The notes under the pieces were generated by a model. The model made no database searches and had not been told where the DNA came from. It saw only the letters and a program-made list of their open reading frames with translations. From the IMG/VR virus record IMGVR_UViG_3300035182_001904: a stretch of 64,000 nt of DNA. One strand, 5' to 3'. Position numbers and translations under genes: made by a program. Below, piece after piece: positions 33,143-61,810 of this stretch (position 1 is its first letter; each line of letters starts with the position of its first letter). The DNA comes from a virus.

Positions 33143-33691
33143 GTGCCCTTCGAGTCCCCGGCCGCCGCAGCCCACTACCTTGCCGCGATGATCGACGGTG
33201 AAGGAACGGTTGCGGTGCTCACCTCTCGATCGCGCAATCGCGTGGTCAAGGTTTGCAACACCGACTGGGACATCATCACGGCTACCGTCGAAAGCTGCGA
33301 GACTCTCGGCATTCGATGTTGCGTTGTCGAACGGCCACGTACAGGCCGTCCAAAACACTGGAAACAAGTTTGGGACGTCGCCATCCAAGATCGCGAAGCC
33401 CTCATGCGACTATTGACGCAAGTTCCGCTGCGGTCTCTTCGAAAACAGCAGCGACTCAAAACTTTGATTCAATCCTACCGAACGTCCAAACGGCCTCCGT
33501 TCGAGGATCTCCAACGAATGTACGTCGACGAAAAAATGTCGTACACGGACATCATGCGAACGACAGGCGCTCGATCAACGGCAACGGTAGCGTACTGGCC
33601 CCGGACGTCAGGGATCGTCGCGCGCACCCGTTCAGTTGCGGGCCACTTGACGTGGCAGACGAAGCGAGGAGTTCTCCATGCCGTTCCGTAG
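33143..33691 (+). CDS. Free-standing LAGLIDADG homing endonuclease with C-terminal HTH-like region
   Basis: YLAAMIDGEG motif at the N-terminus. Lower GC. Confidence 0.8.
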   Translation: MPFESPAAAAHYLAAMIDGEGTVAVLTSRSRNRVVKVCNTDWDIITATVESCETLGIRCCVVERPRTGRPKHWKQVWDVAIQDREALMRLLTQVPLRSLRKQQRLKTLIQSYRTSKRPPFEDLQRMYVDEKMSYTDIMRTTGARSTATVAYWPRTSGIVARTRSVAGHLTWQTKRGVLHAVP

Positions 33692-34139
33692 CGAGGCTCA
33701 ACGTCGCTACCTGTTCTCGCAACACCCGGATGTCGCCCGCGAGTTTGCGAACGCGACGCCCAAGGGCAAGAAGCTGCCCGAGCATGTCAAGAAGTCGCAC
33801 GTGCGCGGCATCGCAGACGCGCTCGAGCAGTTCGGTTTCAAGCAAGCAGCAGAGGAGCTGCGCTTGAAGATCCCAAGCCGCACGTTCCACGGCTACGATG
33901 CAGCTCACAAGACGGAAGCGAACCGCGGCTCGAAGAAGGCGGATGTGGACGGCACCGCAGACAACCTCGCCGACGTGCTCAAGCAGATCGACGTGAACGT
34001 GTCGCCTGATGTACAGCTTGCAGCCCGCGATCCACTCGACCGTACTACTGCGTGGGGATCTCCCTCGAACCTTGCGGGCGGCGACTCGGCGAGCCGGCTC
34101 AGTGACATGGGACAGAACACTGCTTTTGGAGGCGTCTGA
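33678..34139 (+). CDS. Hypothetical virion-module protein (MPFRSEAQRR N-terminal domain + shared motif)
   Basis: GAGGAG RBS. Contains HVRGIADALEQFGFKQAA. Confidence 0.75.
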   Translation: MPFRSEAQRRYLFSQHPDVAREFANATPKGKKLPEHVKKSHVRGIADALEQFGFKQAAEELRLKIPSRTFHGYDAAHKTEANRGSKKADVDGTADNLADVLKQIDVNVSPDVQLAARDPLDRTTAWGSPSNLAGGDSASRLSDMGQNTAFGGV

Positions 34140-34864
34140 TGTCACTCATGCCCCGTGAAGAGACGAGAACCTCTGAAAACTCGATCGGCCACATCATCGA
34201 TCGAGCCACAGGTAAAGCCCCCAAACCTACAGCGGGTTCCCTCATCGACTCTTTGTTGAGCGGGGGAAAAATGGCGATGCCGATGCAAGGGCAACTGACG
34301 CCAGACCAGTTAGCAGTGAACGAAGAACTGAAGGGGCTCGGGGGACGCCCCAACATGCACGGAGGGATGGACATGCCTGAGTCTTTCCACGGAGACCTCA
34401 TGTCGACATTCGAACGCCACAACATGCACCGTGCCCCCCTCGGGAATCCCAAGATGGCCGGGGTTTATCGTGTGGGTGTTGCCGACGCACTCGTGCGTTT
34501 CAAGATCGCAGCCCCTGCTCCCCTGCCTGCCCCTGCTGCGGGTCCTAGCTTCGCGTCCAAGGTCAAGGACTTCGGAGCCGGTCAGTGGGGCGCCGCGAAA
34601 GACTTCGCCGCGAATGTACGCGGTGGCATGGGTGGAAAGGCGAACCCGAACTTCATCACAGGCGCCGTACCCGAGCACAGCATGGACATGGCGCGTGCAT
34701 CACAACGCGGTGCTGCAGTCGGCAACCTCAAGACCCTTGCACCGACGCTGCTCGCGGGCGGAGGTCTCTACATGTTGCACCAGCACAACCAGGCCGAGAA
34801 AGAGGAAGAGGCCCGGCAGCACGCGATGATGGGCGGCGGCATGTCGATGGGTGGAGGATACTGA
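34139..34864 (+). CDS. Gly/Met-rich hypothetical protein with shared motif
   Basis: Contains YRVGVADALVRFKIAA. TGATG-coupled. Confidence 0.7.
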   Translation: MSLMPREETRTSENSIGHIIDRATGKAPKPTAGSLIDSLLSGGKMAMPMQGQLTPDQLAVNEELKGLGGRPNMHGGMDMPESFHGDLMSTFERHNMHRAPLGNPKMAGVYRVGVADALVRFKIAAPAPLPAPAAGPSFASKVKDFGAGQWGAAKDFAANVRGGMGGKANPNFITGAVPEHSMDMARASQRGAAVGNLKTLAPTLLAGGGLYMLHQHNQAEKEEEARQHAMMGGGMSMGGGY

Positions 34865-34871
34865 CGTGCCG

Positions 34872-35645
34872 ATGAACCCTCTACTAGCGCGCAGCCTCAT
34901 GGGCGCGGCGATCGGCACAGCCGGCGGAGCCTTGACCGCTGAAAAAGGTCATCGTGAAGAAGGTGCGCTGCAAGGCGCAGCGATCGGAGGCGCCGGCGGT
35001 GCCCTTTACCACCTTGGTAAGCAGGCACCCACCGCAGGACCGCGTCCTCCGGGGCCAAGTGCTCCTGGTCCAAGCGCAGGTCCGCGTCCAGCAGGTCCAA
35101 GTGCTCCTGGTCCAAGCGCAGGTCCGCGTCCAGCAGGTCCGTCCTGGGAAGACAGAATGCGACAACAGTGGCGGGCGCAAGATGAGGCCCGTGCGTCCGC
35201 ATCACGGCAGGCACGACAGAGCGCCAAAGAAGAGGCGTACAAACACACGCAACAAAGCCAGTCCGCACAAGACGGTTTCAAATACCGTCAACAAGCGGAG
35301 GACAAGCACTGGGGTGCGCAGAACGAAGATGTTTTCAACAACTGGCGTAAGGCGCGACAGGGCGCTGGTGCGGGTCCAAGTGCTGTTATAGGACAATCAG
35401 CTCCACGCGGAGCGCCAAGTGGCGGACTTCCGTCGTGGATGAGCGGAGCGCAAACACAGGCGGAGGCGAAGAGTCGCTTCAGAGAACAAGCAATGAATAT
35501 GCATCCAGACCGTGGCGGAAACACGGCCGACATGCAGTCATTGAATGCACAGTGGGCCGCTGCACGGAAACACCCTGACTTCTCGAGCATGAAAGAAGCG
35601 TGGTGGATGGGCAAAGCGGCTGCGTTACAACATTTCGGTCTCTAA
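34872..35645 (+). CDS. Glycine-zipper / Pro-rich / J-domain-like protein
   Basis: N-terminal GAAIG hairpin and GPSAPGPSAGPRPA repeats. AKSRFREQAMNMHPDRGG..MQSLNAQW is a compact J-domain with HPD. C-terminus is WWMGKAAALQHFGL. Confidence 0.7.
   Translation: MNPLLARSLMGAAIGTAGGALTAEKGHREEGALQGAAIGGAGGALYHLGKQAPTAGPRPPGPSAPGPSAGPRPAGPSAPGPSAGPRPAGPSWEDRMRQQWRAQDEARASASRQARQSAKEEAYKHTQQSQSAQDGFKYRQQAEDKHWGAQNEDVFNNWRKARQGAGAGPSAVIGQSAPRGAPSGGLPSWMSGAQTQAEAKSRFREQAMNMHPDRGGNTADMQSLNAQWAAARKHPDFSSMKEAWWMGKAAALQHFGL
35055..35140. repeat. Perfect 42-bp tandem duplication (in frame)
   Basis: ccaagtgctcctggtccaagcgcaggtccgcgtccagcaggt at 35055 and 35097. Confidence 0.95.
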
Positions 35646-35650
35646 CCAAC

Positions 35651-37432
35651 ATGGCGACAACGCTCGGACAGCACCTCGTCGACTCCATCCTCCCATCGAA
35701 GTGGCGAGGACAGGGGGCGCTCACCAAGGGGAACCTGAACAAGGTCCTCCTCGGTGTCGCAAAAGAGGACCCGAGCAAGTACCCCGACGTCGTGACCAAG
35801 CTCAAGCGTCTCGGTGACGAGGTCGCAACGCTCGACGGCATCTCCGTCGGCCTCGACGACATCGCGCCCCGTGTTGCTGAACGCGACGCTGCCTTGAAGC
35901 CGCACGTCGAAGCCTTTCGAAAGGCGACGACCAACGCGGACAAGGTCAAGACGCTCGTGGGCGGACAGAATGCGATGCTCATGCTGGCACGCAACCACCC
36001 AGGCACGATGGGCGAGATGGTTCGCGCCGGCGGTCGCGGCAATGCTGCACAACTCATGCGCACCGTGGGCGCACCCGTCTTCGCCGAAGACTCCAAGGGC
36101 AAGGTCATTCCGTGGCTCGTCGACAAGAGCTTCTCCGAAGGGCTCAAGCCTGCGGATGCGTGGATCATGGGCGGTCAGGCGCGTGTCAACGCGGTGGTCT
36201 CGAACATCTCGGTTGTCGAGCCCGGTGACCTTGCGAAGATCCTCGTCAACAACATGGGCGACCAGCTCGTGACGACGGTGGACTGCGGCACCAAGAACGG
36301 CATCGCGATGTTGCCGACCGACGCACACCTCATCGACCGCTACCAGGCGGGCACGAACAAGCTGATCACGCCGCAGTACGCGTCTCACCTTGCCAAAGAA
36401 GGCAAGGAGGTCATCGTCCGTTCTCCGATGACCTGCGAAGCTGCGCACGGCGTCTGTCAGCGCTGCCAAGGCCTGTCGTCTTCGGGTGGCATGCATTCGA
36501 TCGGAACGAACGTTGGCGTTCGCGCGGCTCAAGCGCTCGCCGAGCCGCTCACGCAGTTCGCCCTCAACGCGAAGCACGGCGGGCGCGTCGTCGGTGTTGA
36601 CGACGAGAAGCGGCTCGAGGGCATCAAAGGCGTGCGAGCCTTGCTCGAGATTCCGACATCGTTCGCACACAAGGCGGTACTTGCTGACCGCGACGGTTCC
36701 ATCACGAAGATCGACAAGGCTCCGCAGGGCGGTCACTACGTCTTCGTCGGCGACGGTAGCCACTACGTGCCTCCCGCACACAAGGTCGTCGTGGGCATCG
36801 GGCAATCGATGTATGCAGGGGACTTGCTCTCCGATGGCGTACCCAAGCCTGACGAGATCGTTCAACACAAAGGCCTCGGTGAAGGTCGACGCTACCTCGT
36901 CGACGCGCTCTCCGATGTCTACAAGCGCGCAGGCTCCGAGGTCGACAAGCGCCACCTCGAGACGCTCGCCAAGTCCGTGCTCAACCACGTCCAGATCATT
37001 GATCCCGGTCCCGACGACGCATTCATCAAGGGTGACGTCGTCGACTACAATCGGTTCCATGCGTCCCTGGCCGCATCCAAGAAACGCCTCCCGACGACAG
37101 ACGCGATCGGCGAGACGCTCGCGGACGGCATCCTCCACCACACGGCGGGTACTGTCGTGACGCAGCCAATCGCAGACCAGCTCGTACGCCACGGCGTGAC
37201 GTCGGTGATGACGTCCAGCCAGGGGCCGCGTGCACTGCCGTTCATGCGCCCGGCGTCGCGCACACCTCTTCTCAATCCGGATTGGATGGCACGCCTCGCA
37301 CACCGCTACCTCAAGGAGTCATTGCTAACAGGCATCCACCGCGGCGATGTCTCCAACCTACACGGGGCGTCCCCTGTTCCAGCGTACGCTGCAGGCACAG
37401 AGTTTGGCCTTGGTGAAGAGGGGCAATACTGA
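35651..37432 (+). CDS. rpoC: RNA polymerase beta' C-terminal half (RpoC2-like)
   Basis: KLKRLG..ATLDGISVGLDDI, bridge helix EPGDLAKILV, Zn site C..RSPMTC..GVCQRC, trigger loop AAQALAEPLTQFALNAKHGG, and KRHLETL. ATG at 35651. Confidence 0.92.
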   Translation: MATTLGQHLVDSILPSKWRGQGALTKGNLNKVLLGVAKEDPSKYPDVVTKLKRLGDEVATLDGISVGLDDIAPRVAERDAALKPHVEAFRKATTNADKVKTLVGGQNAMLMLARNHPGTMGEMVRAGGRGNAAQLMRTVGAPVFAEDSKGKVIPWLVDKSFSEGLKPADAWIMGGQARVNAVVSNISVVEPGDLAKILVNNMGDQLVTTVDCGTKNGIAMLPTDAHLIDRYQAGTNKLITPQYASHLAKEGKEVIVRSPMTCEAAHGVCQRCQGLSSSGGMHSIGTNVGVRAAQALAEPLTQFALNAKHGGRVVGVDDEKRLEGIKGVRALLEIPTSFAHKAVLADRDGSITKIDKAPQGGHYVFVGDGSHYVPPAHKVVVGIGQSMYAGDLLSDGVPKPDEIVQHKGLGEGRRYLVDALSDVYKRAGSEVDKRHLETLAKSVLNHVQIIDPGPDDAFIKGDVVDYNRFHASLAASKKRLPTTDAIGETLADGILHHTAGTVVTQPIADQLVRHGVTSVMTSSQGPRALPFMRPASRTPLLNPDWMARLAHRYLKESLLTGIHRGDVSNLHGASPVPAYAAGTEFGLGEEGQY

Positions 37433-37878
37433 TGATCGCTCGAGCACATGCAAAGGGTATCGAAGATGCCCTTGCGCGCTTCCAAGTCAAAGACGCGGGC
37501 ATCATGGAAGGCATCAAGCAGACCTTCATCGGACAGCCTGGGCGTGCTTTCGTGGAAGGACCGCGTACGTTCTCTCCGGGTGGAATGCTTTCCACCAAGA
37601 ACGTATGGTGGCCCAGCGTCAAGGGCCAGCCGTTGAACTGGATTGGACGTGCTGGCACGATCGCAGCACCGCTCATGGCACTCTCTGCCATGCGGTCAAA
37701 CCCGCAAGAGGGCCACCTATCAAACGCGCTCGGTGCGCTTGGTGGAATCGCTGGGAGCGCATATGGTTTCCCGGCGCTTGGCATGCTTGGCGGACCTCTT
37801 CTCGCACAAGCGGGCGCACGAGCTGGACGTGGCCTCGGACATCTACTCGGCAGTAAACCGAAGGACCTCTATCAATGA
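37432..37878 (+). CDS. Shared-motif protein with glycine-zipper C-terminus
   Basis: MIARAHAKGIEDALARFQVKDA... Confidence 0.75.
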   Translation: MIARAHAKGIEDALARFQVKDAGIMEGIKQTFIGQPGRAFVEGPRTFSPGGMLSTKNVWWPSVKGQPLNWIGRAGTIAAPLMALSAMRSNPQEGHLSNALGALGGIAGSAYGFPALGMLGGPLLAQAGARAGRGLGHLLGSKPKDLYQ

Positions 37879-38111
37879 TCAACGACGCCTATAATAAAGG
37901 CCGTACCGATGCACTCACCCGCTTCAAGCTCGCTCAAGGCATGGGCATGGGTGCTGGTGGTATGAATGTCGGTGGTGGCGTCGGCGGTGGCACGTCGGGC
38001 AGTCCTGGCGCAGCGGGAATGGCAGCACCACTGCCTCCCGCGATGGCCGCTCCAACATCCGCGGCGCCGCCCATGGCAGCGGGGGCTCAAAAGGCTCGCG
38101 CGCTCGGTTAG
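37875..38111 (+). CDS. Small shared-motif protein, Gly/Ala/Pro-rich
   Basis: MINDAYNKGRTDALTRFKLAQ... Confidence 0.7.
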   Translation: MINDAYNKGRTDALTRFKLAQGMGMGAGGMNVGGGVGGGTSGSPGAAGMAAPLPPAMAAPTSAAPPMAAGAQKARALG

Positions 38112-38183: not shown

Positions 38184-39503
38184 ATGTTCAAGCATGCGTA
38201 CGTCCGTGGCATCCAGACCGCGTTGGTCAACAGCGGCGCAGCCGCGTTCCCCGACGAGACCACCGCGGCGAAGGTCGCGGACTACATCGCTGACCGTGTC
38301 GACATCGACCCTCTGAAGGGTGTGTCGCGCGAGGCGACCCACAAGATCGGGACGGACCTGGTCGCAGCCTCCGACTGGATCAAGCAGCAGCCCGGCTTCA
38401 AGGCGGCGAGCTTCAACAAGCTCGCGACGTGGGAAGACGTCGCGCAGCTCGCGGATCGCAACGCGACCCAGCTGATGACGAAGGCCGCCGAGGGCTCGAC
38501 CATCGAGGGTGGCGACAAGGGGAACACCCAAGCCGAGGCGCCCGCGGGCGAGACCAAGATGGACGCCTCGCAGCGTCCTCCCGGCTATGCCGAGGACAGC
38601 CGCGGCAAGACCGAGATCGACACCCGGCCGGGCACGGTCGGCAAGGAAGAGGAGCAGCCGAACAAGCCCAAGGAGACCGACTCCAAGGACAACTCGGTGC
38701 AGGAGCACTCGCGCACCGCGTCGCTCGCTGACCTCTTCCGCAAGTCGGCCGAGGGCTCGACGATCATGGGTGGCGACAAGGGCAACACCGCCATGTCGTC
38801 GGCCGAGGCCAAGATGGACGCGGCACAACGTCCCGCAGGCTACGCCGTCCTGCCCACGCAGGGTGCACTCGGCGCGATGATGAACCTCGTCGGCGGCCCC
38901 GCGGTCGTCGGCAAGGAGACCGCGCAGCCGAACAAGCCCGGCGAGTCGCCGAGCGGTTCGAACTCGGTGACCCAGCAGTCCGCCAAGGCGGCTGCCGAGG
39001 ACCCGTACATCGCGCTCTTCAAGAAGGTCGCTGCCGAGGTGCACGAGTACCTCCCGGGCGGTCTCCACGAGAACGCCAAGATCGCCGCGGTCCGCGCCTG
39101 CATGGGCATGACGACCGAGGAGAAGGCGTACTACCTCCGCGGCCTGCAGAAGGAGGCGGCGGATGCGTCGACGGGTTCTTCCAGCCTGCCGCCGGGCTCG
39201 CGCGGTGATCGCTACCGTGAGCACAACCCGGACGCGACGCACTCGCGGCCCGGCGCCTACGATGGCCGCTCTGGCAACCAGGGCACCAAGCAGGCCGACG
39301 ACCTCCCGCCCTTCATGAAGAAGGACGAGAAGGACGAGAAGAAGGACGACGACAAGGAGAAGGACAAGGGCGGCATGCCCGACTTCATCCGCGAGAAGAT
39401 CGAGGGCAAGAAGCACGAGGAAGGCGAGTCGAAGAAGGAAGAGCACAAGGAGGCCTCGCTTCGCGACTTCTTCCGTCGCATCGACGCGGCACAGCGCGCG
39501 TGA
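38184..39503 (+). CDS. Head/core-type protein with shared motif and internal 87-aa duplication
   Basis: MFKHAYVRGIQTAL. Two KxAEGSTIxGGDKGNT..KMDA.QRP.GYA..VGKE..QPNKP repeats and many K-x-A sites. Confidence 0.8.
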   Translation: MFKHAYVRGIQTALVNSGAAAFPDETTAAKVADYIADRVDIDPLKGVSREATHKIGTDLVAASDWIKQQPGFKAASFNKLATWEDVAQLADRNATQLMTKAAEGSTIEGGDKGNTQAEAPAGETKMDASQRPPGYAEDSRGKTEIDTRPGTVGKEEEQPNKPKETDSKDNSVQEHSRTASLADLFRKSAEGSTIMGGDKGNTAMSSAEAKMDAAQRPAGYAVLPTQGALGAMMNLVGGPAVVGKETAQPNKPGESPSGSNSVTQQSAKAAAEDPYIALFKKVAAEVHEYLPGGLHENAKIAAVRACMGMTTEEKAYYLRGLQKEAADASTGSSSLPPGSRGDRYREHNPDATHSRPGAYDGRSGNQGTKQADDLPPFMKKDEKDEKKDDDKEKDKGGMPDFIREKIEGKKHEEGESKKEEHKEASLRDFFRRIDAAQRA

Positions 39504-39667
39504 GCCTTCCGCGCCACATCCGCGAAATGGGGCGTCTCGTCGTCGAAGAGAAGCTTGCTGAGATCCTGAACCCGACCCTCGGCTCGCTCAAGGCGCAGAA
39601 GACGAAGCAGCTGGGCGGTCTTCCTGACGCGAATCTCTCCAAAGTCGTCAGCTTCCCCAGTTCGTAG
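39500..39667 (+). CDS. Small protein (55 aa, not in ORF track)
   Basis: GTGA-coupled. MSLPRHIREMGRLVVEEKLAEIL...FPSS fills the gap exactly. Confidence 0.5.
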   Translation: MSLPRHIREMGRLVVEEKLAEILNPTLGSLKAQKTKQLGGLPDANLSKVVSFPSS

Positions 39668-39679
39668 ACGAGGTCCCAT

Positions 39680-42600
39680 ATGCCGGCAATGTCGCCCCGC
39701 ACTCAACAGCTCCAGGCCGGCATGAACGCGGGTCCCGACCAAGAGACAGCCCTGTTCGAACAGGGCATGTCGGAGATGGCGTACAACCTGCTGTCGACGC
39801 GTATGCCTGACCTGATGCAAGACGTCGTCACCTTCAAGGTGCTCGATGTCGACATCGACAAAGGGTCAGGTGTGGGGTCGTTCGTGGTCTTGCGCCACAA
39901 CCAACCGATCTACGTTCCGGTGGTGATGGTCGACAACGCCATCAAGCCGCTCGAGGTCTTCTATCACAAGGCCCTGAACGTCTTCCTGCCGCTCTCCAAG
40001 GGTTGGCTCGACGAGATCGACAAGACCGGACTCGCGTCCTTGGGCGCGGGTGTCAAGACGCCCGAGACGCTCTACACAGACGTCGACATCCGCAACGTCG
40101 TCGTGCCGCCGATCACCGGCCGATTCTCGTATGCCTCGTGGGTGCCCAAGGCGCTCATCGACGTCGCACGGGTGATGACGGTGGAGACGCTCGAGAAGGT
40201 CGCGAGCGAAGCAGACCTCATGCTCCCGTCGTTGCTCTCGGCCGCGCCGAACACGATGAAGGCTGCCTACGTCCGACTTCTCGAACGGAACCCGACGCTG
40301 TTCAAGCAGGCGGCGTCGACGTACGGCATGAAGACGCTCGCGGCCGCACTTCAGCCCCGCCTCGAGAAGGTCGCGGCCAGGCAGCAACATGGCGGTGCGC
40401 TGTGGATCGCCGACGCCGACAACACACCGACCGACTTCAAGCGCATCTTCGGTGACAAGGCCGGGGAGGCGTACACGGGTGTGCGCAAGAAGGGCTTCGC
40501 CGCCAAGGACGAGCGCCTGAACCGCAACATGGCGGTGCAAGAGCAGCCCTACGAGCACTGGGTCGAGCCCAAGCAGCCCGGCATCTACACGCTCTACGCA
40601 TCGGACGGGAAGGAGCGCACCGCGTTCGTGATGCCCTTCCCGATCGATCTGTTCGATGAGGGCACGCGTTACGGCCGACGTCCGGCCGTTCCCGCACACA
40701 ACCCACTCGTCGACAACTCGTACACCGATCCCGAGACGCACGGCAGCTCGAACAAGGTCTACCCGCACGGGCGGCCAGACGAGGGCAGCTACGCCACGCG
40801 CCGTGGGTATGACGCCAAGCCGTTCCTCGCGGTGTTCGACAACGGTGACTACATCGAGCCGAACAGGCTCGTGGGCCGTGATTCGATCGCGGACGGTGTC
40901 GGCGGTTCGTTGCATGCCCGCATGTTCACGGACGTCAGTGGTGAGCCCAAGGCGGGCAAGGGCTTCTTCGTCCGCCAGCGCGGCACCACGTTCCAAGCGA
41001 CGGGTCCCGTCACGATCAAGTCGATCTCGACGGGGTCGGATGGCGTCCGTCGCATCAAGGCGACGCCTGGAGACTTCGGTCCCGAGAAGACGCTCTCGAC
41101 CGACGCAGCGTATCCGTACAACACGATCTGGATGCCCAAGGGCGCCGATGTCGTCTACCTTCCGACGGACTTCATCTGGGTGCCGCTTAAGGTGCGCCTC
41201 AACGAGCGCGGCTGGTTCCAGTCAGCGCTCGACCTACAGGCATGTGTCTCGAACATGCTCTCCGCGGTCGGCGCGAAGAAGGTCTCGATCAAGGACGCAG
41301 GCGCCAAGCAGTTCTCCATCAACGGGATGGCACCGCTGAGCTTCGTGCCCGCGCTCAAGAAGCTCGCATTCGCGTGCAACATCTCGGTCGTCGATGCCGA
41401 GGCGTTGCTCGTCAAGACGGCAGCAGACCACAAGGCGACTGCGTGGATTGCGACGAGCCAACAGCTCGCGCGGGTGCAGATGCGCCTCGACAAGCTTGCG
41501 GATCAAACACCCGGTTGGTGGCGTCAGTACGCGCCGCACGCCGAACATGCAACCGTGATGCATGACGCGCACGCCGACATGCGCCTGCCGGACGGTCACG
41601 TCATTCAGAAGGGTGAGAGCATCGCGATCCTGCCCTACGACCATGATCGTGGTTGCGTTCCAATCGTGACATCCACCGGACATCACTTCTCGATCGGTCA
41701 CGAAAAGTCGGCAGCGTTGAAGTCGTACTTCAAAGGCGCGGCGGACGACGACAAGAAGAAGTCCGACTCCGACAAGCCGAAGAAGAAGGCGCCCCCGAGC
41801 GACGGACCTCCGGGCGGCGATCCCGGCATGGACCCGAGCATGGGCGGCGACCCGAACCTCGGCCAGGACGCGGCGATGGCCGCCATGGGCCAGGCTCCTC
41901 CGGCCCCGCCTCCGCCCGCTCCACTCGACCTCGCGGCGATGGAGATGGACCAGCACATCCAGCAGGAGATGCAGAAGCTGGTCGAGAAGCAGCAGACCAT
42001 CCAGATGCTGCTCCAGCGCTCGTCCGAGATCGCGGGTGGCGCGCCTCCTGCGCCGAGCGTGCAGACGCAGGCGATGGGCGCTCCTCCGTCTTCGATGAAT
42101 CTCGCGACGGGGCAACCCGGCATGCCGCCTGGCATGACGGCAGGCATGGGTGCACCGCCCCAAGACCCGTCGATGGGTGCCGCTGTTCCGCCGGGCATGC
42201 CGCCGGGCGGCGCGTTCCCGCCGGCTGCAGGTGACCCGTCGATGATGGGTGGCCAGGCGCAACAGGACCCGTCGATGAGCATGGGCGGACAGCCCGGCAT
42301 GGATCCGTCGATGAGCATGGGCGGACAGCTCGGCATGGATCCGTCGATGGGCATGGGCGGACAGCCCGGCATGGGACAAGACCCATCGATGATGAGTGGC
42401 ATGGGCGGACAGCCCGGCATGGATCCGTCGATGGGTCAGCAGCAACAGCCGCCCAACGCGACGATGCCGCCAGACGGCCCGAACGCGCAGACGCTTCCGC
42501 AGGAGGTCAATCCGCACTTCCTCGATCAAGCCGCGCAGTTGCATTCGGCAGACATGTTCGACGCAGCTGCTGTGGCAACGCTCGCGCAGTCGCCGGCACT

Positions 42601-52618: not shown

Positions 52619-52647
52619 ACAACATCCCTGCCCCAGGGTAGGCTGAG

Positions 52648-52690
52648 GCCTTCTTCCTCCCTTGTTCGGGGATTCAGGAAGAAGGCTTTC
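52648..52690 (+). terminator. Long hairpin after the capsid gene (terminator or processing/stability element)
   Basis: GCCTTCTTCCT(52648-52658)/AGGAAGAAGGC(52676-52686) perfect 11-bp stem followed by TTTC. Confidence 0.55.
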
Positions 52691-52712
52691 GTCGTTTCAC
52701 CCTTGGAGAACC

Positions 52713-53138: not shown

Positions 53139-53167
53139 TCCTCGAGCCGCTACAATAGAGGCACCCC

Positions 53168-54153: not shown

Positions 54154-54443
54154 CGCTCGTTGCTGCATATACACAAGGCAAGAACGCAGCGCTTGCGCAT
54201 TTCAAGCTCGCTAACTCGATGGGCGCGAATGCAGGCGTGCAGCCGCGGGGCGATGAGTTCAGCCATGGCACCGAGCGCATCCCGTACGCACACCGCGAAA
54301 CACCCGGAGACGGGGCTCACACGGAAGCCGCAAGTAACGCCCGCGCGAACATGCCCGCCTGGCTGTGGGACCACTTCACGACCTACGACAACATTGCGCC
54401 GGGACGTGCGGATGGGTCGTTCGGACAAGAGGTCATCGGGTGA
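54150..54443 (+). CDS. Small shared-motif protein
   Basis: MTLVAAYTQGKNAALAHFKLAN... Confidence 0.72.
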   Translation: MTLVAAYTQGKNAALAHFKLANSMGANAGVQPRGDEFSHGTERIPYAHRETPGDGAHTEAASNARANMPAWLWDHFTTYDNIAPGRADGSFGQEVIG

Positions 54444-54450
54444 AATTCGC

Positions 54451-54458
54451 CCTATAAT
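54451..54458 (+). promoter_or_regulatory. CCTATAAT -10-like element, leaderless-type
   Basis: TATAAT at 54453-54458, ATG at 54465 (6-nt gap). Confidence 0.62.
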
Positions 54459-54464
54459 TCAACC

Positions 54465-54644
54465 ATGTCGAACAACCACCTGAAGACCGCGCACGAGTAC
54501 GGCATCCAGAAGGCTCTCGAAGCTGTCGGCTACAAGAGCGCGGAGGAAGTCCGTCGCGATGCCGAGGCGCTCGGCCTGATCGAGGCACCCAAGACGGCCG
54601 CCGCGAACCCGCTCGCAGACCTGTTCCGCGCGATCCAGAAGTAG
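54465..54644 (+). CDS. Small shared-motif protein (59 aa, not in ORF track)
   Basis: MSNNHLKTAHEYGIQKALEAVGYKSAEEVRRDAEALGLIEAPKTAAANPLADLFRAIQK. Confidence 0.75.
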   Translation: MSNNHLKTAHEYGIQKALEAVGYKSAEEVRRDAEALGLIEAPKTAAANPLADLFRAIQK

Positions 54645-54653
54645 TTCCCCGCC

Positions 54654-55031
54654 ATGTCGCTGCTGCGCCAAAAGTCGGCTGAGGGCGGGCGCGCAGCGCT
54701 CGCGGCCTTCGGCTTGCCTGCGCCGCAGCAGCCAGGTCTCAAGTCTGTTGGGATCAAGACGCCACACGCGTCGGATCTTCCACACCTGCCACGGCCCGGA
54801 TCGACCAACGCACCATCGGTTGGAGACTCGATGGGCGTTGACGCTGCGAAGATCGCGTTCAACGTCGGCATGGGTGCGTCGACATCGAGCGACGGTGCAG
54901 GTGCTCAGGCGGGTGAGCCGACGGACACCGGACGTCGTCAACGCAGCGTCATCGATCGCGCACTCCAGCGCAACGACGACGACTACGCAACCAGCAGCAT
55001 GCCGTTGCCAGGAGACGTCGTTTCGCCATGA
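54654..55031 (+). CDS. Shared-motif protein, low complexity
   Basis: KSAEGGRAALAAFGL, KIAF. Confidence 0.68.
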   Translation: MSLLRQKSAEGGRAALAAFGLPAPQQPGLKSVGIKTPHASDLPHLPRPGSTNAPSVGDSMGVDAAKIAFNVGMGASTSSDGAGAQAGEPTDTGRRQRSVIDRALQRNDDDYATSSMPLPGDVVSP

Positions 55032-55891
55032 CCCTCGAGCTGGCATACGCGAACGGGCAACACGCGGCGCTCGAGCGCTACAAGCTGGGCTGGCCTGCGC
55101 CAACGAACCCGACCGTGGCAGGGAGCGCCGTGCTCCGTGCCAAGGACGGTCCGTCGTCGTTGTCACCGCAGGCGCAGCAAGCGATGGCACCTCCGGCGAC
55201 ACCTGCATCCGTCGCGCAGATCTTCAGCGCGCACGAGCAGGGCGAGACCCGTGGCGAACCTCGTCGCAAGCTCTCTGCGGACATCTGCACGTCGTGTCGC
55301 AAGGCCAAGCACTACGGCACGTGCAGCCAGCCCCGGCCGATTCCAATGAAGGCTGCGGACTTCAATCCGGGCATGCTCGGTGGTGACCCCAAGCAGGGCG
55401 ACAATCCGTCGACCAGCCCTCACTACCACTCGGCGACGAGCAGCATCAGCGCGCTTGGGCGCTCAAGCGACGGACGTCCTGCGGACGAGCAGGCAGGTTC
55501 GGGTTTCGCTGACCTGTTTCGACACCAAGGCATCCGCAACAGCGCGGATGAGCCGGGACGGATGACGGGCGGCCTGAACAAGGTCGCGATCGACGCAGAC
55601 CGTGAACGTACTCGCCGTCACGCGATTCTGTACCGCATGTACGGCGTCAAGCTCAGCGACTTCTTCACCAACATGCCAGGCGCGGCGACGCACTCGATGC
55701 ACGAGCAGCGTGGCACGCCGATCAATCCCTACGAAGAACGTCTGACCCGCAAGTCCCCGCCCGTCGGCTGGGGTGACGAAGGTGACCAGCGCATCAACCG
55801 CGCATTCGGTCAGATCGACAACGCGGCCGACACATCCAGCATCGGGGGCGGCGCCGGTTCACCTGATACCGGGCCGGCGGTCCTTGGCTGA
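55028..55891 (+). CDS. Shared-motif protein with CxxC..H..C segment
   Basis: MTLELAYANGQHAALERYKLG, CTSCRKAKHYGTC and several K-x-A/S sites. Confidence 0.7.
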   Translation: MTLELAYANGQHAALERYKLGWPAPTNPTVAGSAVLRAKDGPSSLSPQAQQAMAPPATPASVAQIFSAHEQGETRGEPRRKLSADICTSCRKAKHYGTCSQPRPIPMKAADFNPGMLGGDPKQGDNPSTSPHYHSATSSISALGRSSDGRPADEQAGSGFADLFRHQGIRNSADEPGRMTGGLNKVAIDADRERTRRHAILYRMYGVKLSDFFTNMPGAATHSMHEQRGTPINPYEERLTRKSPPVGWGDEGDQRINRAFGQIDNAADTSSIGGGAGSPDTGPAVLG

Positions 55892-56726
55892 AGTTCGCAT
55901 CACCCGCACCACGGCGTTGTTCCCAACGGCGGTGTTCGTTCAGTGGGATGTTGAATCGGACGAGAGCGGCGCGTTCTTCGTCGACATCGCACGTTCGGAA
56001 AGTCCCAGCGGCCCCTGGGAGTCCGTCGCAACGGGCTTGCGCGACGCGTACAACTTCATCGACGACAAGTTCAACCTCCCGCCTGCAGACCCGAAGAACG
56101 CAGGGCGCGAAGGCGTGAACCTGTTCTCGCTCGCGCGCGTCCTGTACTACCAGCTCACGGTCACGCCTCCGTCGGGATCCGCGAACATGTTCACGAGCGA
56201 GCCGACGCCAGTCGAGCCGGGTCTCGATCGGCGAACCCGGTTGTTCAAACGCAAGATCCTCCACGATCAAGCGGTGGGCTATCGCCGTCTCAACGGCATC
56301 CCACTCATCGTGCTCAAGCGGAAGCGTTGGGGCGACCGCTGTCCTCAGTGTTACGACCCGGTGACCAAAGAGTCTACGCTCGAGCATTGCCTCATCTGCT
56401 ATGGCACGACGTTCGTGGGCGGGTACTGGGCCCCGACATTGATCCGCGGACGGCGCGAAGCTGCAACGGTCGCTACGAACATCACGTCGCATGGCGACAG
56501 TGACGTCAAGTTCAACGACTTTAATATCCTCGACTACCCGCTCGTCGAATACAAAGACATCCTTGTCGACCTCGTGCGCAACGAACGCTACCAGGTTCAG
56601 CGTACACACCACACGGAACTCAAGAGTGTCACGGTTCACCAGAAGGTGACGACGTCGCTACTGGGACACAACTCGGTCGAATACAAGCTACTCGTTGACC
56701 CAACAGCTGTTCCACCGCTGTACTAA
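55884..56726 (+). CDS. Probable neck/head-closure protein
   Basis: Likely TTG start at 55884 (MAEVRITR). FN3-like N-terminus, CPQCYD..CLICYGTTFVGGY, and position before the tail terminator and sheath. Confidence 0.55.
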   Translation: MAEVRITRTTALFPTAVFVQWDVESDESGAFFVDIARSESPSGPWESVATGLRDAYNFIDDKFNLPPADPKNAGREGVNLFSLARVLYYQLTVTPPSGSANMFTSEPTPVEPGLDRRTRLFKRKILHDQAVGYRRLNGIPLIVLKRKRWGDRCPQCYDPVTKESTLEHCLICYGTTFVGGYWAPTLIRGRREAATVATNITSHGDSDVKFNDFNILDYPLVEYKDILVDLVRNERYQVQRTHHTELKSVTVHQKVTTSLLGHNSVEYKLLVDPTAVPPLY

Positions 56727-56729
56727 TTC

Positions 56730-57437
56730 ATGAGCGACAACTACCCCAACTACGTACCGGACCCGAAGAATCAACCTTCGCCGGAAGAAACGCAGCAAGT
56801 CAGCATCCGTCCAGGGTCAAAGCTTGCGGTGTTGGGCGTGTTTGTTGAAATCATCCGGAAGCGGTTTGCACGCGAAGTCGTTGGGGACGAATTCCAGTGG
56901 CGGTGGGATCCGGACATCAAAGTCACGCGACTCGCCGTCGAAAGTGCGTTCAACGAAGACAAGACACACCGGAACTTTCGGCCTGCAGTCTATGTCGACT
57001 GTGATGACCAGACGATGGGGCGTGTCGTACTGGGTGACCGTGTTGGCGTGAACCTCAAGACGGGCCTCGAAGGGTTCTGGAACCTTCAATCCGTGCCGAT
57101 TCTGATCGAGTGCGTGACCGGAAAACGTGCCGAGAGCGCGGTGCTTGGCGACATTGTTGGGATCTTCCTGCAGGCATCGAGCGACCTCATCCAGGGGAAA
57201 TTCGGGCTGCACGACATGACGCCAATCACGGTTGGACGCACGCAACCCGCGCAGCGCGACAAAGATCAGTGGGTGACGTCCGTGACCTTCGTGGCGCAGT
57301 ACCCACAACGCTGGACGAATGCGCCAACCGCGCCCCTGCTGCGAAGCGTAGAATTGGACGTCGTCCGTTCGGGTGCAGATTCTGCCACCGCGTATTTCGA
57401 AACCATCGCCCTCTCTGGGTCCGCTCCGTCCAAGTAG
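56730..57437 (+). CDS. Probable tail terminator/completion protein
   Basis: 235 aa, directly before the sheath gene. RPAVYV motif. Confidence 0.5.
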   Translation: MSDNYPNYVPDPKNQPSPEETQQVSIRPGSKLAVLGVFVEIIRKRFAREVVGDEFQWRWDPDIKVTRLAVESAFNEDKTHRNFRPAVYVDCDDQTMGRVVLGDRVGVNLKTGLEGFWNLQSVPILIECVTGKRAESAVLGDIVGIFLQASSDLIQGKFGLHDMTPITVGRTQPAQRDKDQWVTSVTFVAQYPQRWTNAPTAPLLRSVELDVVRSGADSATAYFETIALSGSAPSK

Positions 57438-57508: not shown

Positions 57509-59914
57509 ATGGCCATTCGACCAGTCGTACTCGTTTACCAGGACCTGGCCACGCCGACGGTCACGCCGACGTCTCCAGACCTGAACTGCCTTGTCGTGGG
57601 GCCCGCGTTCCACATCCAGGACTACTTCAAGCCCGGCACCACGGACTACGCCGACAAGACCGACATCCAGGTCACGCCGGCGTATGGCACGTTGGAAGCA
57701 TCCCCTGACGGGACGCTGCCGACGGGCCCTGCCGTGATCACGGTTGCCGAGCCGCCGAACAACGCTGTCGGGGCCATCCTGGATGGCTCGAGCGTCGCGA
57801 TCTACTTCGACCAAGCGCGCGTCCGTATCGCGGGCAAGGGCGTCGACGCGGGTGGTGGCATCAAGGGCACGACCACGGTCCTGACGCCCAACCAGTTCGA
57901 CACCGCCGAGACCCTCCCAGGGCCGACCACGTTCGCCACGGCAGGGCCGGGCAAGGTGTTGCCGGGCGACCGTCTCGTCATCGTCGATGCGGGCACGGTC
58001 GTCATCGCGCGCACGGTGCTCTCGGTTGTCTCGGACACCCAGCTGCTGCTCACAGCAGACGTCACCGGCGGAACGTTCGTGCCGGCAGCCAACCAGCACT
58101 GGTACATCGAGCGGCAGATCAACGACGTCCAGATCGCTTCGTCGTTCGTCTCGCACACCAACAACGCCGTGAAGATCGCCGGCAGCGTGACGCTGGCAGT
58201 GACCGGGCAGGGTAGCAAGCCCGTGTCGTACGCCGTCGTGTACGAGGCGTACCGCTCGCTTCGTCAAGACATCGTCGACCTCGACACCATCGAGTCCGAG
58301 GCCGACATCCTGTCGAAGATCGGCCGTCTCGACGTGCGCAACCCGCTCGCGGCAGGTGCGTTCGTCGCGCTCGAGAACACGACCTCGGTCGTTCAGTTCA
58401 TCGGCGTGCTGTCCGACGACCTCGCGGGACACGTCACCGTGCGAGACCACATCTCGGCACGCCCCGATGTCTACGCCATCATCCCGATGACGACCGACGT
58501 GTCGATCTTCGCGATGTGGAACTCGGACTGCGTCGGACTCGCGCTGCCCGACAACGTTCACGGTCGTCCGCAGCGCTTCCGCGTCGTCATCGGCAACGGC
58601 ACGCTGCCGGTGACCAAGACGATCGTGGGTGCGTCGGCCACGGGCGCACCACTGCAGCTCAGCGGAAGCGCGCCCAGTGCGATCACGAAGATCGTGCTGA
58701 CGGGCGTGGCGACCCTGCTCACCACGGGCGGCGGCGTCATCCCGGGCGACATCCTCCGCGTGACAATCTCGTCTGTCCTCGGCGATGTCGCACTCGGCGA
58801 CTATCCGATCGCGTCCGTCGAGAGCGCGACCACGATCGAGGTCGACGTCGCGACACCGTTCGCGGGCGCGGGCACGTGCAACATCACCTGCGCGATCGTC
58901 TATGCGGACGGGACCACGGTTCGCGTGCCTTCGGCCGCGCTCATTGGTGTCATCACGTCGGCCGGCGATGACCTGTTCCTGATCCTCAAGGACCCGAGCG
59001 GCACGTTCATCGCGAGCGGCGTCGCTGCGGGTGACCTCATCAAGATCCCGGTCGACCCGAACGCAGCGATCACCTCGGCCACCGTCTTCACGACGCTCGT
59101 CGTCAACAACGTCATCAGCGATCAACGTCTGCAGATCGTCAACAACGGGCAGGACAGCTCGACGGTCCAGAACGAGCTGCCACACGGCGTGAAGCGGATC
59201 GGCGGCGCCCTCGTCGGCCTGACAACGGTCAACTTCGAGATCGTTCGTACGCTCTCGAAGAGCCAGCAAGTCACCGAGCTGGTGGCGGTCGCGCAGTCAT
59301 TCAACTCCAAGCGCACGGTCCTCGTGTGGCCGGACAAGTGCGACGTCGCAGGTGTCACGGGCGGCACCAAGCAGCCGGGCTACTACCTGGCATGCGCGGT
59401 CGGCGGCATGACCGCGGGTCTGCCGTCGCAGCAGGGGTTCACCAACCTCGGCATCGCGGGCGTGTCCCAGATCTACGACTCGAACACGTACTTCACGGAC
59501 AGCCAGCTCACCGACATCTCGAACGGTGGGTGGTACGTGTTCGCGCAGCAGACGACCACGTCGCTGCCGTACACCATCCACCAGCTGACCACGGACCCGG
59601 CGACGCTCGAGTCGGGCGAGTTCTCCGTCGTCAAGAACTTCGACTTCGTGTCGTTGTTCTTCGTCGACATCCTCGAGGACTTCCTCGGTCAGTACAACGT
59701 CACGCTCGACACGCTGACGCAGCTGCACGGTGCGCTGATCACCGGCTCGCAGCTCCTGTTGCTGCGCACGGCAGCGAAGATCGGTGCGCCGCTGACCTCG
59801 TTCGCCATCACGGCGCTCGAGGTCTCGCCGACGTCGGCGGACCGCGTGCTGATGTACTGCGCGATCGGCTTGCCCAAGCCGCTCAACGTCATCGAACTCC
59901 ACCTGGTGGCGTAA
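57509..59914 (+). CDS. Contractile tail sheath protein
   Basis: 801 aa. C-terminal sheath-like domain YLACAVGG..GFTNLGIAG..HQLTTD..EFSVVKNFDFVS with beta-rich insertion domains. Confidence 0.8.
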   Translation: MAIRPVVLVYQDLATPTVTPTSPDLNCLVVGPAFHIQDYFKPGTTDYADKTDIQVTPAYGTLEASPDGTLPTGPAVITVAEPPNNAVGAILDGSSVAIYFDQARVRIAGKGVDAGGGIKGTTTVLTPNQFDTAETLPGPTTFATAGPGKVLPGDRLVIVDAGTVVIARTVLSVVSDTQLLLTADVTGGTFVPAANQHWYIERQINDVQIASSFVSHTNNAVKIAGSVTLAVTGQGSKPVSYAVVYEAYRSLRQDIVDLDTIESEADILSKIGRLDVRNPLAAGAFVALENTTSVVQFIGVLSDDLAGHVTVRDHISARPDVYAIIPMTTDVSIFAMWNSDCVGLALPDNVHGRPQRFRVVIGNGTLPVTKTIVGASATGAPLQLSGSAPSAITKIVLTGVATLLTTGGGVIPGDILRVTISSVLGDVALGDYPIASVESATTIEVDVATPFAGAGTCNITCAIVYADGTTVRVPSAALIGVITSAGDDLFLILKDPSGTFIASGVAAGDLIKIPVDPNAAITSATVFTTLVVNNVISDQRLQIVNNGQDSSTVQNELPHGVKRIGGALVGLTTVNFEIVRTLSKSQQVTELVAVAQSFNSKRTVLVWPDKCDVAGVTGGTKQPGYYLACAVGGMTAGLPSQQGFTNLGIAGVSQIYDSNTYFTDSQLTDISNGGWYVFAQQTTTSLPYTIHQLTTDPATLESGEFSVVKNFDFVSLFFVDILEDFLGQYNVTLDTLTQLHGALITGSQLLLLRTAAKIGAPLTSFAITALEVSPTSADRVLMYCAIGLPKPLNVIELHLVA

Positions 59915-59923
59915 GGCGCCTTC

Positions 59924-60565
59924 ATGTCCGACAACTTCTTCGACAAGTTCATCGCGGACCTCGTCAAGGGCGCGGAAGCCTCGCAAGGCTTCATGCCCGG
60001 GTCGAAGGTCAACGTCGAGATCTCGCGCGAGCATCGTGGTCGCGAGGAGAAGCTCGCGTCATTCGGTGGCGCCCTCGGCGGCGGTCTTCTCGGTGGTGGT
60101 GCTGGTGCACTTGGTGGCGGCCTCGCCGGCGCTGGCACGGGTGCACTGCTCGGCAAGCTGCTCCATCTCGACCCCGCGGTCGCCCAAGACATGGGTGCGC
60201 TGCTTGGCGTGGGAGGTGCTGCCGCAGGAGGTCTCGGCGGTGCGGCCGCAGGCACGGCGGCTGGCATGGAACCGCACCGTCCTTCGTTGATGGAGCGCAT
60301 GAAGGGCGGGGCCCTCGAGTCCCGCTACACCGACGGCATCAAGGCCGCCGCCGCAGCGTTCGGCATCAAGGAGGCCTTCCTCCCTGCGCTGCTTGGCGCG
60401 GCTGCCCCGATGCTCGGTCGCTCTCTGCTTGGCAAGGCTGCGCCTGCCATCGCGGGGCGTGTGGGCAGCGGGCTAGCAGGCGCTGCATTCGACACCGCAG
60501 CCCAAGCCGGTGGCCAGGCGATTGGCAACAAGCTGATGCCGCCGAAGCCCCCGATGCCAAACTGA
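59924..60565 (+). CDS. Glycine-zipper protein with internal shared motif
   Basis: EEKLAS|FGGALGGGLLGGG, RYTDGIKAAAAAFGIKEA|FLPALLG. Confidence 0.75.
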   Translation: MSDNFFDKFIADLVKGAEASQGFMPGSKVNVEISREHRGREEKLASFGGALGGGLLGGGAGALGGGLAGAGTGALLGKLLHLDPAVAQDMGALLGVGGAAAGGLGGAAAGTAAGMEPHRPSLMERMKGGALESRYTDGIKAAAAAFGIKEAFLPALLGAAAPMLGRSLLGKAAPAIAGRVGSGLAGAAFDTAAQAGGQAIGNKLMPPKPPMPN

Positions 60566-60569
60566 CCAA

Positions 60570-60881
60570 ATGATCAAGCGCGCCTACCACAGCGGAGTCG
60601 AAGCGGCGTCGAAGCGATTCGGCGTTCGCGAGGGCTCGATCATGGGCATGATCCAGGACACGCTTCCGTTGCTTGCGATGGGCGCTGCCAAAAGCACCGC
60701 GAAGGCGCTTGTGCCGGGCGCCTTCGCACACATCGATCGCTTGCAGGAAGCGCCCGGCAAGTTCCTGCGTCGCAACCTACTGCCCGCGCACATGCAAGTG
60801 TCACCTGCTGACGCGCTTGCACGACACCTCGAGACCGCGTCACTACCCCCAACAGGTCCTCACATGATGGGGATTCGATGA
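60570..60881 (+). CDS. Shared-motif protein
   Basis: MIKRAYHSGVEAASKRFGVRE... Confidence 0.7.
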   Translation: MIKRAYHSGVEAASKRFGVREGSIMGMIQDTLPLLAMGAAKSTAKALVPGAFAHIDRLQEAPGKFLRRNLLPAHMQVSPADALARHLETASLPPTGPHMMGIR

Positions 60882-61810
60882 GCGTCGAGCAGTTCAAGAT
60901 CGCAGCCCTTCCGGTGGACGTCAGCAAGTTGCTGACGAATACACCTCTGGGCGGTGCGCTCGCCGGCGCCGGCATCGGTGGCCTCACGAGCTTGCTCAGC
61001 AGCGACGAGCACCCTCTGCGCGACATGGCGGTGGGTGCGGGTGCCGGCGGTCTTCATGGCCGCCTCGGGCAGCAGGCGAACGTTCTCGGGCAGCAGGCGG
61101 GACAGCTCGAGTCCCGCATGGGTGACGTCGAGCGCACGCTGGCAGCACGCCGCGCAGTTCCCGCATCCTCCGCAACGCCTGCGGCAGGCGGCTTCATGCG
61201 CATGTTGGGCGACCTTCTGGGTGGTCGAAAGAACGCAAGTTTCGCGTCGATTTTCCCGGCGGTCGCAGCTCCTGCGCTGGGTAGCTTTGCGGGCCGTGCG
61301 ATCGGCGCGAAGTTCAAGCAGCCGGACCTGGGCATGTTGCTCGGTGGCATCACCGGCGGCACCACCGGCCAGCTCCTCAAGGAGAAGGTCGAAGAGGCGG
61401 AAGACGCCACCGTGCCGCCCGGTGCACCGTACAACCTCGACGCGACGTCTCAGGATATCCCGTCGTGGGCGCTGCAGGGCGCACACCTCCTGCAGCCACG
61501 CATGAAGCAATCGGCACACGCGCATGGGCGTGAGCCCATTGGGGACGTACTGAAGGGTGAGATCCCGGGCTACCCCGTTGCGGAAGCCTTGGTCAAACAC
61601 GGCCCTGAAGCAGGGGCACGTACGTTCGGCGGCATGGCAGGCGGCGGCTTGGTGGGTGGCGGTCTCGGCGCGCTCGGAGCCTACGGCATCGAAAAGCTTC
61701 TCGGTCACCAGGTCAACGTGCCCGGCATCGGCATGTCACTTCCTGATCTACTCGCATCCGTTGGTGGCACAATTGGAGCCACCAAGGGCCTGCGCTACAT
61801 GAAAGCCTGA
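60878..61810 (+). CDS. Protein with three glycine-zipper modules
   Basis: FKIAA|LP, RKNAS|FA and MKQSA|HA each precede a GxxxG hairpin. Confidence 0.75.
   Translation: MSVEQFKIAALPVDVSKLLTNTPLGGALAGAGIGGLTSLLSSDEHPLRDMAVGAGAGGLHGRLGQQANVLGQQAGQLESRMGDVERTLAARRAVPASSATPAAGGFMRMLGDLLGGRKNASFASIFPAVAAPALGSFAGRAIGAKFKQPDLGMLLGGITGGTTGQLLKEKVEEAEDATVPPGAPYNLDATSQDIPSWALQGAHLLQPRMKQSAHAHGREPIGDVLKGEIPGYPVAEALVKHGPEAGARTFGGMAGGGLVGGGLGALGAYGIEKLLGHQVNVPGIGMSLPDLLASVGGTIGATKGLRYMKA

Follow-up and report, generated by a model that had tools for sequence, protein, structure and literature searches.

The fate of a protein inside the phage head (retention, exit, or activation) is set by the prohead protease. 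To our knowledge, the only codes that have been worked out for enzymes of the T4 type cut after glutamate. Herpesvirus assemblins (pUL26 family) cut V/L/I-x-A before Ser, at their R and M sites. In T4, the sites of the gp21 protease lie in gp22, gp67, gp68, gp23, gp24, and internal proteins. The code is L/I-x-E for T4 gp21, S/A/G-x-E for phiKZ, and A-x-E for SPN3US gp245, and proteases of the phiKZ type also cut themselves C-terminal to the protease domain, with extra sites in propeptides (PMC5694885). Here we describe a 64,000-nucleotide stretch of DNA from an uncultured phage (IMG/VR record IMGVR_UViG_3300035182_001904), hereafter the window, in which a three-residue motif, Lys-x-Ala (K-x-A), is likely to be the cleavage code of the phage's own gp21-fold prohead protease. 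The window covers bases 42464-106463 of one 137.5-kb contig (~62% GC), and all positions below are window positions; genes were called by a codon-usage model and then inspected by eye. Among cultured phages, the closest are Salmonella phage Arash (OQ632216; PMC10585845) and the Vibrio phages D69, D181, and D148, whose capsid proteins are 38-41% identical to that of the window and whose portal, RNA polymerase, and protease genes follow the same order, but whose protease lacks the intein described below and whose publication or annotation makes no mention of a protease or of processing. Related contigs in IMG/VR number at least 119. Our literature searches for a Lys-x-Ala or K-x-A capsid-protease motif yielded no description of one.

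An earlier note on the window had read pervasive K-x-A triplets between 33678 and 61810 as probable prohead-protease sites in polyprotein-like precursors. We scanned 400 ordered residue pairs at gaps of 0 to 3 (1,600 patterns) against the expectation from each protein's composition. Among the plus-strand genes of 33678-61810, K-x-A was the top outlier (123 vs 61.4 expected, z 7.9), and the other 112 proteins of the genome held no excess (163 vs 169 expected); the enrichment thus survives correction for Ala and Lys content. The second strong pattern of the same range was G-xxx-G (145 vs 96, z 5.0). Regional z-scores from within-protein shuffling (2000 shuffles) place the K-x-A excess in 38184-51164 (86 vs 35.2, z 9.5, a count reached in 0 of 2000 shuffles) and in ORF 4706, an open reading frame (ORF) outside the head block (10 vs 1.8, z 6.6), with a lesser excess in 51188-57437 (16 vs 9.0, z 2.6). 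The range claimed earlier therefore holds for 38184-51164 and fails at its flanks, which are non-significant (33678-38111, z 0.5-1.4; 57509-61810, z 0.9). In the core set of carriers, K-x-A reaches z 10.5, and 96 of the 268 lysines fall within a motif; across the head-assembly proteins of the phage and its relatives, the excess amounts to about 2.5 times chance. Motif-bearing proteins, apart from the protease and the capsid protein, include the following:

49603 to 50175, plus strand: protein of 190 residues, read as scaffold/core-like from its position and site density; 13 K-x-A from 17 lysines, 3.5 expected.
38184 to 39503, plus strand: head-internal protein of 439 residues; 12 K-x-A, 5.7 expected.
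39680 to 42835, plus strand: virion protein of 1051 residues, homolog of Arash gp218; 12 K-x-A.
43451 to 44425, plus strand: head-internal protein of 324 residues; 9 K-x-A, 3.3 expected.
44416 to 45696, 45693 to 46139, and 46142 to 46711, plus strand: three glycine-zipper-rich proteins; 4, 5, and 5 K-x-A.
50179 to 51164, plus strand: four small ORFs of 90, 71, 51, and 118 residues; 2, 2, 2, and 5 K-x-A.
4706 to 5695, plus strand: protein of 329 residues outside the head block, predicted to be a further protease substrate; 10 K-x-A, 1.8 expected.

The earlier note had recognized the abundance of the motif, but its counts for 49603 and 38184 (about 8 and about 9) were too low. It had also placed the motif in 4706 and in the protease, correctly in both cases (the protease, ORF 46708, has 13 vs 6.4 expected). 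Every example that it quoted is present: in 44416, KRA ahead of GV (residues 21-23), KTA ahead of AAN (62-64), and KRA ahead of MV (278-280); in 59924, KLA (43) and KEA (149); in 60878, KIA (7), KNA (118), and a KQS. With a z of 0.9 for 57509-61810, the examples in 59924 and 60878 do not, taken singly, exceed chance. Its remark that K-x-A tends to sit at composition boundaries was assessed by eye only. In the 44416, 45693, and 46142 proteins, the motif often stands immediately ahead of hydrophobic Gly-rich segments, and in the 39680 protein all 12 copies fall within the first 704 residues. Residues ~705-930 of the latter are of low complexity (Pro/Gly/Met/Gln), with repeated G-G-Q-P-G-M-D-P-S-M units and zero K-x-A.

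The excess is specific for both residues and for their spacing. KA, KxxA, KxxxA, AxK, and RxA showed no excess in the gapped-pair scan of the plus-strand genes of 33678-61810, and in the core set KxS and KxG were also flat, as were the known codes ([LI]xE, z 1.3; [SAG]xE, z -0.8; herpesvirus-like [VLI]xA, z -1.1). At the nucleotide level, AAR-NNN-GC occurs 96 times in frame and 7 and 4 times in the two other frames; the motif sites use all four Ala codons, and 17 different residues occur at x. This restriction to one frame and the use of every Ala codon led us to reject a DNA-level motif (methylation, promoter); signal-peptidase-type A-x-A sites were rejected because AxA is flat (z 0.8). The surroundings of the motif are biased as well. 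Position -2 is [LIVMF] in 39% of sites (background 24%, p 0.0013), so that [LIVMF]-x-K-x-A occurs 37 times against 8.7 expected (z 9.9), and the residue after the motif is A/S/G/E/D in 65 of 96 sites (background 0.41) and A/S/E in 53 of 96. K-x-A triplets elsewhere in the genome show neither the -2 bias nor the bias at the following residue. The fuller context is thus hydrophobic-x-K-x-A, then A, S, or E.

Capsid proteins are 68-99% identical across the relatives, while neighbouring proteins fall to 30-40%, which makes a test of motif conservation sharp. In 22 ortholog families, with orthologs at or below 70% identity, conservation was 0.61 for lysines within the motif and 0.37 for those outside it (p 1e-6), 0.67 and 0.43 for the corresponding alanines (p 2e-9), and 0.45 for the middle residue vs an overall mean of 0.47. 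When the 49603 protein is aligned with its orthologs (56 sequences, 31-84% identity), motifs are seen to be retained or re-created, with K-T-A-S, K-I-A, K-E-A, F-x-K-F-A, L-V-K-E-A, and L-E-K-x-A persisting against a changing background. This family has an unalignable linker of 12-44 residues, which carries at least one site in 46 of the 56 orthologs; the linkers hold 77 motifs vs 22.6 expected from their composition, spread across 11 alignment columns, which indicates that the motif is re-created and not merely inherited. The same is seen for 4706, whose orthologs are 35-42% identical to it and still carry 9-11 motifs, some in shifted register.

These data bear on the possibility that K-x-A is recognized by no enzyme and simply arises where Ala/Lys-rich scaffolds form amphipathic or coiled-coil helices. 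Positions -2 and +1 are both rich in hydrophobic residues, with the three-residue spacing of a single helix face, and many carriers are predicted to be helical (from the model of the protease tail). However, only K and only A are selected, with RxA, KxS, KxG, and AxA flat; the helical spacings KxxA and KxxxA are flat too; the middle residue evolves freely; and the motif is kept at shifting positions in a length-variable linker and in a low-confidence segment of the protease model (below). We therefore consider a purely helical origin very unlikely.

The excess is confined to head-internal proteins, and this confinement recurs across the relatives. In all 19 of the 19 relatives with full flanks, head-internal orthologs gave z 4.3-10, and the capsid, connector, and tail orthologs of the same 19 loci had no K-x-A excess (z ~0). 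K-x-A was the top pattern in Arash gp217-225 (49 vs 25.9), and the head module of Vibrio phage D69 held 50 vs 20.7 (its other proteins, 26 vs 27.3), with K-xx-S high too. As a control, the same blind scan of T4 gp68, gp21, and gp22 put I-x-E and L-x-E first and second; it recovers the known gp21 code from the T4 core proteins, a cleavage code with the same statistical signature as that seen here.

The candidate enzyme for such a code is ORF 46708:

46708 to 49545, plus strand: prohead (capsid maturation) protease of 945 residues, whose N-terminal domain has the gp21/assemblin fold and whose C-terminal tail is long and helical.
47233 to 48327, plus strand: intein of 365 residues (protein residues 176-540) with a LAGLIDADG homing-endonuclease domain.
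48526 to 48534, plus strand: K-V-A at residues 607-609 (242-244 without the intein), candidate autocleavage site.

We modelled an intein-free ortholog (L018:6120-7862) with AlphaFold, using 29 sequences, and obtained a predicted local distance difference test (pLDDT) score of ~80 for the N-terminal domain. The top three PDB matches of this model in Foldseek were all 5jbl, the structure of T4 gp21 (prob 0.90-0.99, template-modelling (TM) score 0.55-0.59). VIA-align to 5jbl gave Z 10.6 with a root-mean-square deviation of 2.9 Å over 136 residues, the next fold reaching 6.7; herpesvirus proteases scored Z 4.5-5.9 (those of pseudorabies virus, HCMV, and HSV-2, 4.9-5.9), in the range of unrelated entries. 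Three orthologs match PHROG 18299, the 'head maturation protease' family (E 1.5e-9 to 1.9e-7), and tblastn with the N-extein finds Arash gp222, Bacillus phage G gp19, and Gordonia phage Stormageddon gp13, the last annotated as capsid maturation protease. Phage G gp19 has been named head maturation protease, with no cleavage sites listed (PMC12484599). A profile of 29 protease orthologs searched against PDB sequences matched designed coiled coils alone (E>0.03). In an hhalign alignment to gp21 at a probability of 2%, the near-invariant Ser173 (V-S-M-G) is paired with gp21 Ser140, A-N-x-D-P is common to both, and the near-invariant H121/H122 fall 3-4 residues off the position of gp21 His85. In the head module, the portal gene (25528) is followed by those of the protease (46708), the scaffold-like protein (49603), and the capsid protein (51680), an order shared with Arash.

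The resemblance to T4 extends to the setting, since gp21 has the same fold and is likewise encoded in the head module beside scaffold and capsid genes; in both phages the motif has the form specific-any-specific and is densely repeated in core/scaffold proteins. The differences are that motif statistics here predict K-x-A and not L/I-x-E, that the protease has 580 residues (945 with the intein) and a 340-residue helical tail compared with 212 residues for gp21, and that a Cys-rich C-x2-C...C-x-H insert follows the predicted catalytic Ser. Throughout the family, S-M-G is followed by an invariant C-x6-C-x2-C ... C-x-H cluster (residues 176-199 of the L018 ortholog; columns ~260-285 of alignment A1). 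It is a probable zinc site, and T4 gp21 has no such Cys/His cluster at the aligned position. phiKZ gp175 and SPN3US gp245 come, like the protease described here, from large phages with their own RNA polymerase, and in those phages a three-residue motif marks the processing sites of many head proteins, but they cut after Glu and their substrates have no detectable sequence relation to those of the window. Herpesvirus assemblin may have a related fold, and it resembles the protease in Ala before and Ser/Ala after the presumed cut and in a long C-terminal scaffold-like tail with a release site just behind the catalytic domain; it differs in its aliphatic P3, which would be Lys here, and in cutting two sites in one precursor as opposed to dozens in many proteins.

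The intein matches the Pfam families Hom_end_hint, Intein_splicing, and LAGLIDADG_3, and its boundaries (SMG/C...HN/C) have Cys1, a terminal His-Asn, and a +1 Cys. It is absent from most orthologs (580-680 residues), which have an uninterrupted SMGCRIK instead. If Ser173 is the likely nucleophile, as the weak alignment suggests, the intein sits two residues past it. The K-V-A behind the fold domain has its K, V, and A invariant in 29 of 29 orthologs and lies in a linker of pLDDT<50 (232-254) that directly follows that domain; Stormageddon gp13 has K-Q-A at the equivalent position. As judged from sequence, a cut at this candidate site would part the protease domain from its tail. The Lys-x-Ala specificity that the earlier note had proposed for the protease thus gains support from the selective conservation of the motif, its turnover, the 19 of 19 relatives, Arash and D69, the T4 control, and the gp21 fold of the enzyme.

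The major capsid protein carries a single site:

51680 to 52618, plus strand: major capsid protein of 312 residues, 41% identical to Arash gp226, which is annotated 'major capsid protein'.
51770 to 51778, plus strand: K-E-A at residues 31-33, candidate propeptide cut and the only capsid K-x-A.

This K-E-A is invariant in the IMG/VR orthologs and is present also in Arash and D69; it was set aside as weak independent evidence, the entire N-terminus being conserved. It bears on another idea, that K-x-A marks lysines for covalent modification or cross-linking (acylation, methylation, isopeptide formation) during head maturation. HK97-type capsids use lysine isopeptide bonds, and a Lys with a small residue two positions on is formally like the consensus motifs of eukaryotic lysine modification. 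On the other hand, the shell protein has one site only, the PHROG and Pfam scans of the module yielded no transferase or ligase candidate, and sites in the protease linker and at the ends of repeats and leaders fit cutting better, so that this idea appears highly improbable.

If the motif is cut, the bond has to be placed. HK97-type proteases are reported to cut after Lys, and sequence statistics cannot place the scissile bond; the cut might therefore fall after Lys, made by the phage protease or by a trypsin-like enzyme of the host. We nevertheless favour a cut after Ala with Lys at P3, because the motifs of the superfamily follow a P3-x-P1 pattern and the next position is biased to A, S, or E. 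This strong bias after Ala is as expected for P1', the fold of the protease is that of gp21/assemblin and not that of the HK97 S78 type, and the known codes of the superfamily are P3-x-P1 (PMC5694885), which together make a cut after Lys quite unlikely.

Several small proteins share a short N-terminal element that ends in the motif. A hidden Markov model (HMM) of this leader was built from seven instances of A-[YH]-x-[KR]-G-x-x-[DA]-A-L-x-x-F-(x)-K-x-A (~20 residues), and its matches are limited to the plus-strand structural block: 7 are strong (E<=2.4e-7), of which three lie at residues 3-25, and some 8 more are weak. Two groups of carriers are:

37432 to 38111, plus strand: two small ORFs (37432, 37875) with the leader A-[YH]-x-[KR]-G-x-x-D-A-L-x-R-F-(x)-K-x-A; E 1e-9 and 2.5e-9.
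54150 to 55891, plus strand: four small ORFs (54150, 54465, 54654, 55028) with a leader-like N-terminus; E 2e-8 for 54150, 0.3-1.5 for the others.

Further small ORFs of the family lie at 60570-60881 and, beyond the window, at window-equivalent 69000-69787. The leader is N-terminal in 37432, 37875, 54150, and 69000, more weakly so in 60570, 55028, 54654, 54465, and 38184, and internal in 33678, 34139, and 59924; five of the weaker matches end in G-L, K-L-G, or V-R-E and not in K-x-A. It was not found in Arash, D69, phage G, or the distant IMG/VR clades, and is a feature of the close clade only. These short leaders resemble the capsid-targeting sequences of T4, and by that analogy they may have a targeting role. 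The strongest argument for 'polyprotein-like' products comes from the internal copies. The earlier note's precursors of this kind stand on anecdotal cases only, namely the internal leader-like modules of 33678, 34139, and 59924, the protease with its tail, and the repeats of 38184. The 38184 protein contains a tandem internal duplication, and each copy opens with L-x-x-K-x-A and then EGSTI-x-GGDKGNT, so that it begins directly after K-x-A, at the KxA-EGST junction that the note had quoted for both repeats.

That the motif is cut, at which bond, and with what fate for the fragments is what we infer from these observations. Splicing of the intein would restore the active site at Ser173. Once the prohead is assembled, the protease within it would cut itself at the invariant K-V-A behind the catalytic domain and chop the scaffold/core-like and internal proteins that are dense in sites (38184-51164 and 4706) to short peptides, which would leave the head or stay in it; by analogy with T4 gp22, many small peptides may be released from the precursors in this way. 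A 33-residue N-terminal piece would probably be removed from the capsid protein, as would the shared ~20-residue leader from the family of small proteins.

Several points weigh against this proposal. Cleavage products are on record for neither the phage nor its relatives, and the Arash paper and its supplements mention neither a protease nor cleavage. At the level of sequence, the hhalign match to gp21 is weak (probability 2%), and the ORF 46708 family matches zero Pfam protease families at E<=1. The hydrophobic bias at -2 and +1 matches the i/i+3 periodicity of a helix, so that the context is perhaps partly structural; a number of K-x-A triplets fall within the folded protease domain, where cutting is improbable; and K-x-A-bearing proteins such as the RNA polymerase show no avoidance of the motif (12 vs 11.4 expected). 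The LC-MS/MS virion proteome of Arash, reported for 116 proteins as coverage figures only and in a study that did not look at processing, has gp220-gp225 at 80-100% coverage (PMC10585845). Either simple degradation and loss is not the fate of these proteins, or the virions were not pure.

High virion coverage of gp220-225 would fit proteins that are retained, as they would be if K-x-A were a docking or assembly motif, bound by capsid, portal, or protease, that recruits internal proteins without being cut. Enrichment, conservation, and confinement to head-internal proteins are expected of any selected short motif. Yet at least 10 copies per 190-330 residues would be unusual for a docking signal, the motif is also found in the protease itself, in the disordered linker directly behind the catalytic domain, and the specific-any-specific form is that of the known codes of the protease superfamily, with the T4 code giving the same statistical signature. 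Docking therefore seems unlikely, and we retain cleavage by the gp21-fold protease as the likely explanation.

There are hints that the code may extend well beyond the Arash-like group, into phage G and Stormageddon. In phage G (L083, 9000-32000), gp19 has 8 K-x-A vs 2.4 expected and gp21 has 7 vs 2.8, and in Stormageddon (L097, 7000-32000) gp13 has 11 vs 5.7, all of these being small numbers. Stormageddon gp12-14 was set aside as a further case (13 vs 8.1, non-significant). A broader reading, which we hold tentatively and regard as possible but short of probable, joins two proposals: that K-x-A replaces the Glu code across a clade, and that the leader is a capsid-targeting tag. The clade would comprise RNA-polymerase-encoding phages of 140-200 kb, with Arash, D69/D181/D148, and perhaps phage G and Stormageddon as members, and would be environmentally widespread; the leader would bring small glycine-zipper proteins into the head, where it would be removed.

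A long plus-strand structural block begins at 25528, and the gene run between the RNA polymerase genes and the major capsid gene at 51680 could not be annotated. The recognizable features are:

25528 to 27318, plus strand: portal protein, 29% identical to Arash gp204, which is annotated 'portal protein' (E 7e-93).
27728 and 35600, plus strand: bacterial-type RNA polymerase in two separate parts.
57509, plus strand: gene with a weak PHROG match to tail sheath.

The portal protein holds K-x-A at expectation (3 vs 3.9). Megablast of 33678-55000 against GenBank phages gave zero matches. PHROGs on 40 ORFs of the block gave little except RNA polymerase, HNH, a weak sheath, and a weak holin, and Pfam on 20 ORFs gave the intein, glycine zippers, a sub-threshold DnaJ match, and nothing else. 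The RNA polymerase beta gene (27728-33136) has an apparent insert, with a match to the PHROG 'thymidylate synthase' family at residues 398-477, and a free-standing HNH endonuclease gene (33143-33691) lies between the polymerase genes. Together with the protease intein, this insert and the HNH gene indicate that selfish elements cluster in essential virion genes. The glycine-zipper-rich small proteins (34851, 37432, 44416, 45693, 46142, 59924, 60878) have hydrophobic stretches and weak Pfam Gly-zipper matches, and may be membrane-active ejection proteins. Among them, ORF 34851-35645 (264 residues) was overlooked by the codon-usage caller; a glycine zipper at its N-terminus is accompanied by a Pro/Ala/Gly/Ser repeat and, toward the C-terminus, by a stretch containing H-P-D-R-G-G that matches Pfam DnaJ below threshold (E 0.014), and its last residues are leader-like. 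Its product may be a J-domain-like virion protein.

If K-x-A is the code of this protease, the mature virion proteins would become predictable for a large and mostly uncultured group of phages whose head genes are unannotated, and the leader with its site would provide a handle for loading foreign proteins into these capsids. It would also mean that P1 and P3 specificity in the superfamily can swing from acidic and aliphatic to small and basic, bridging the phage and herpesvirus enzymes.

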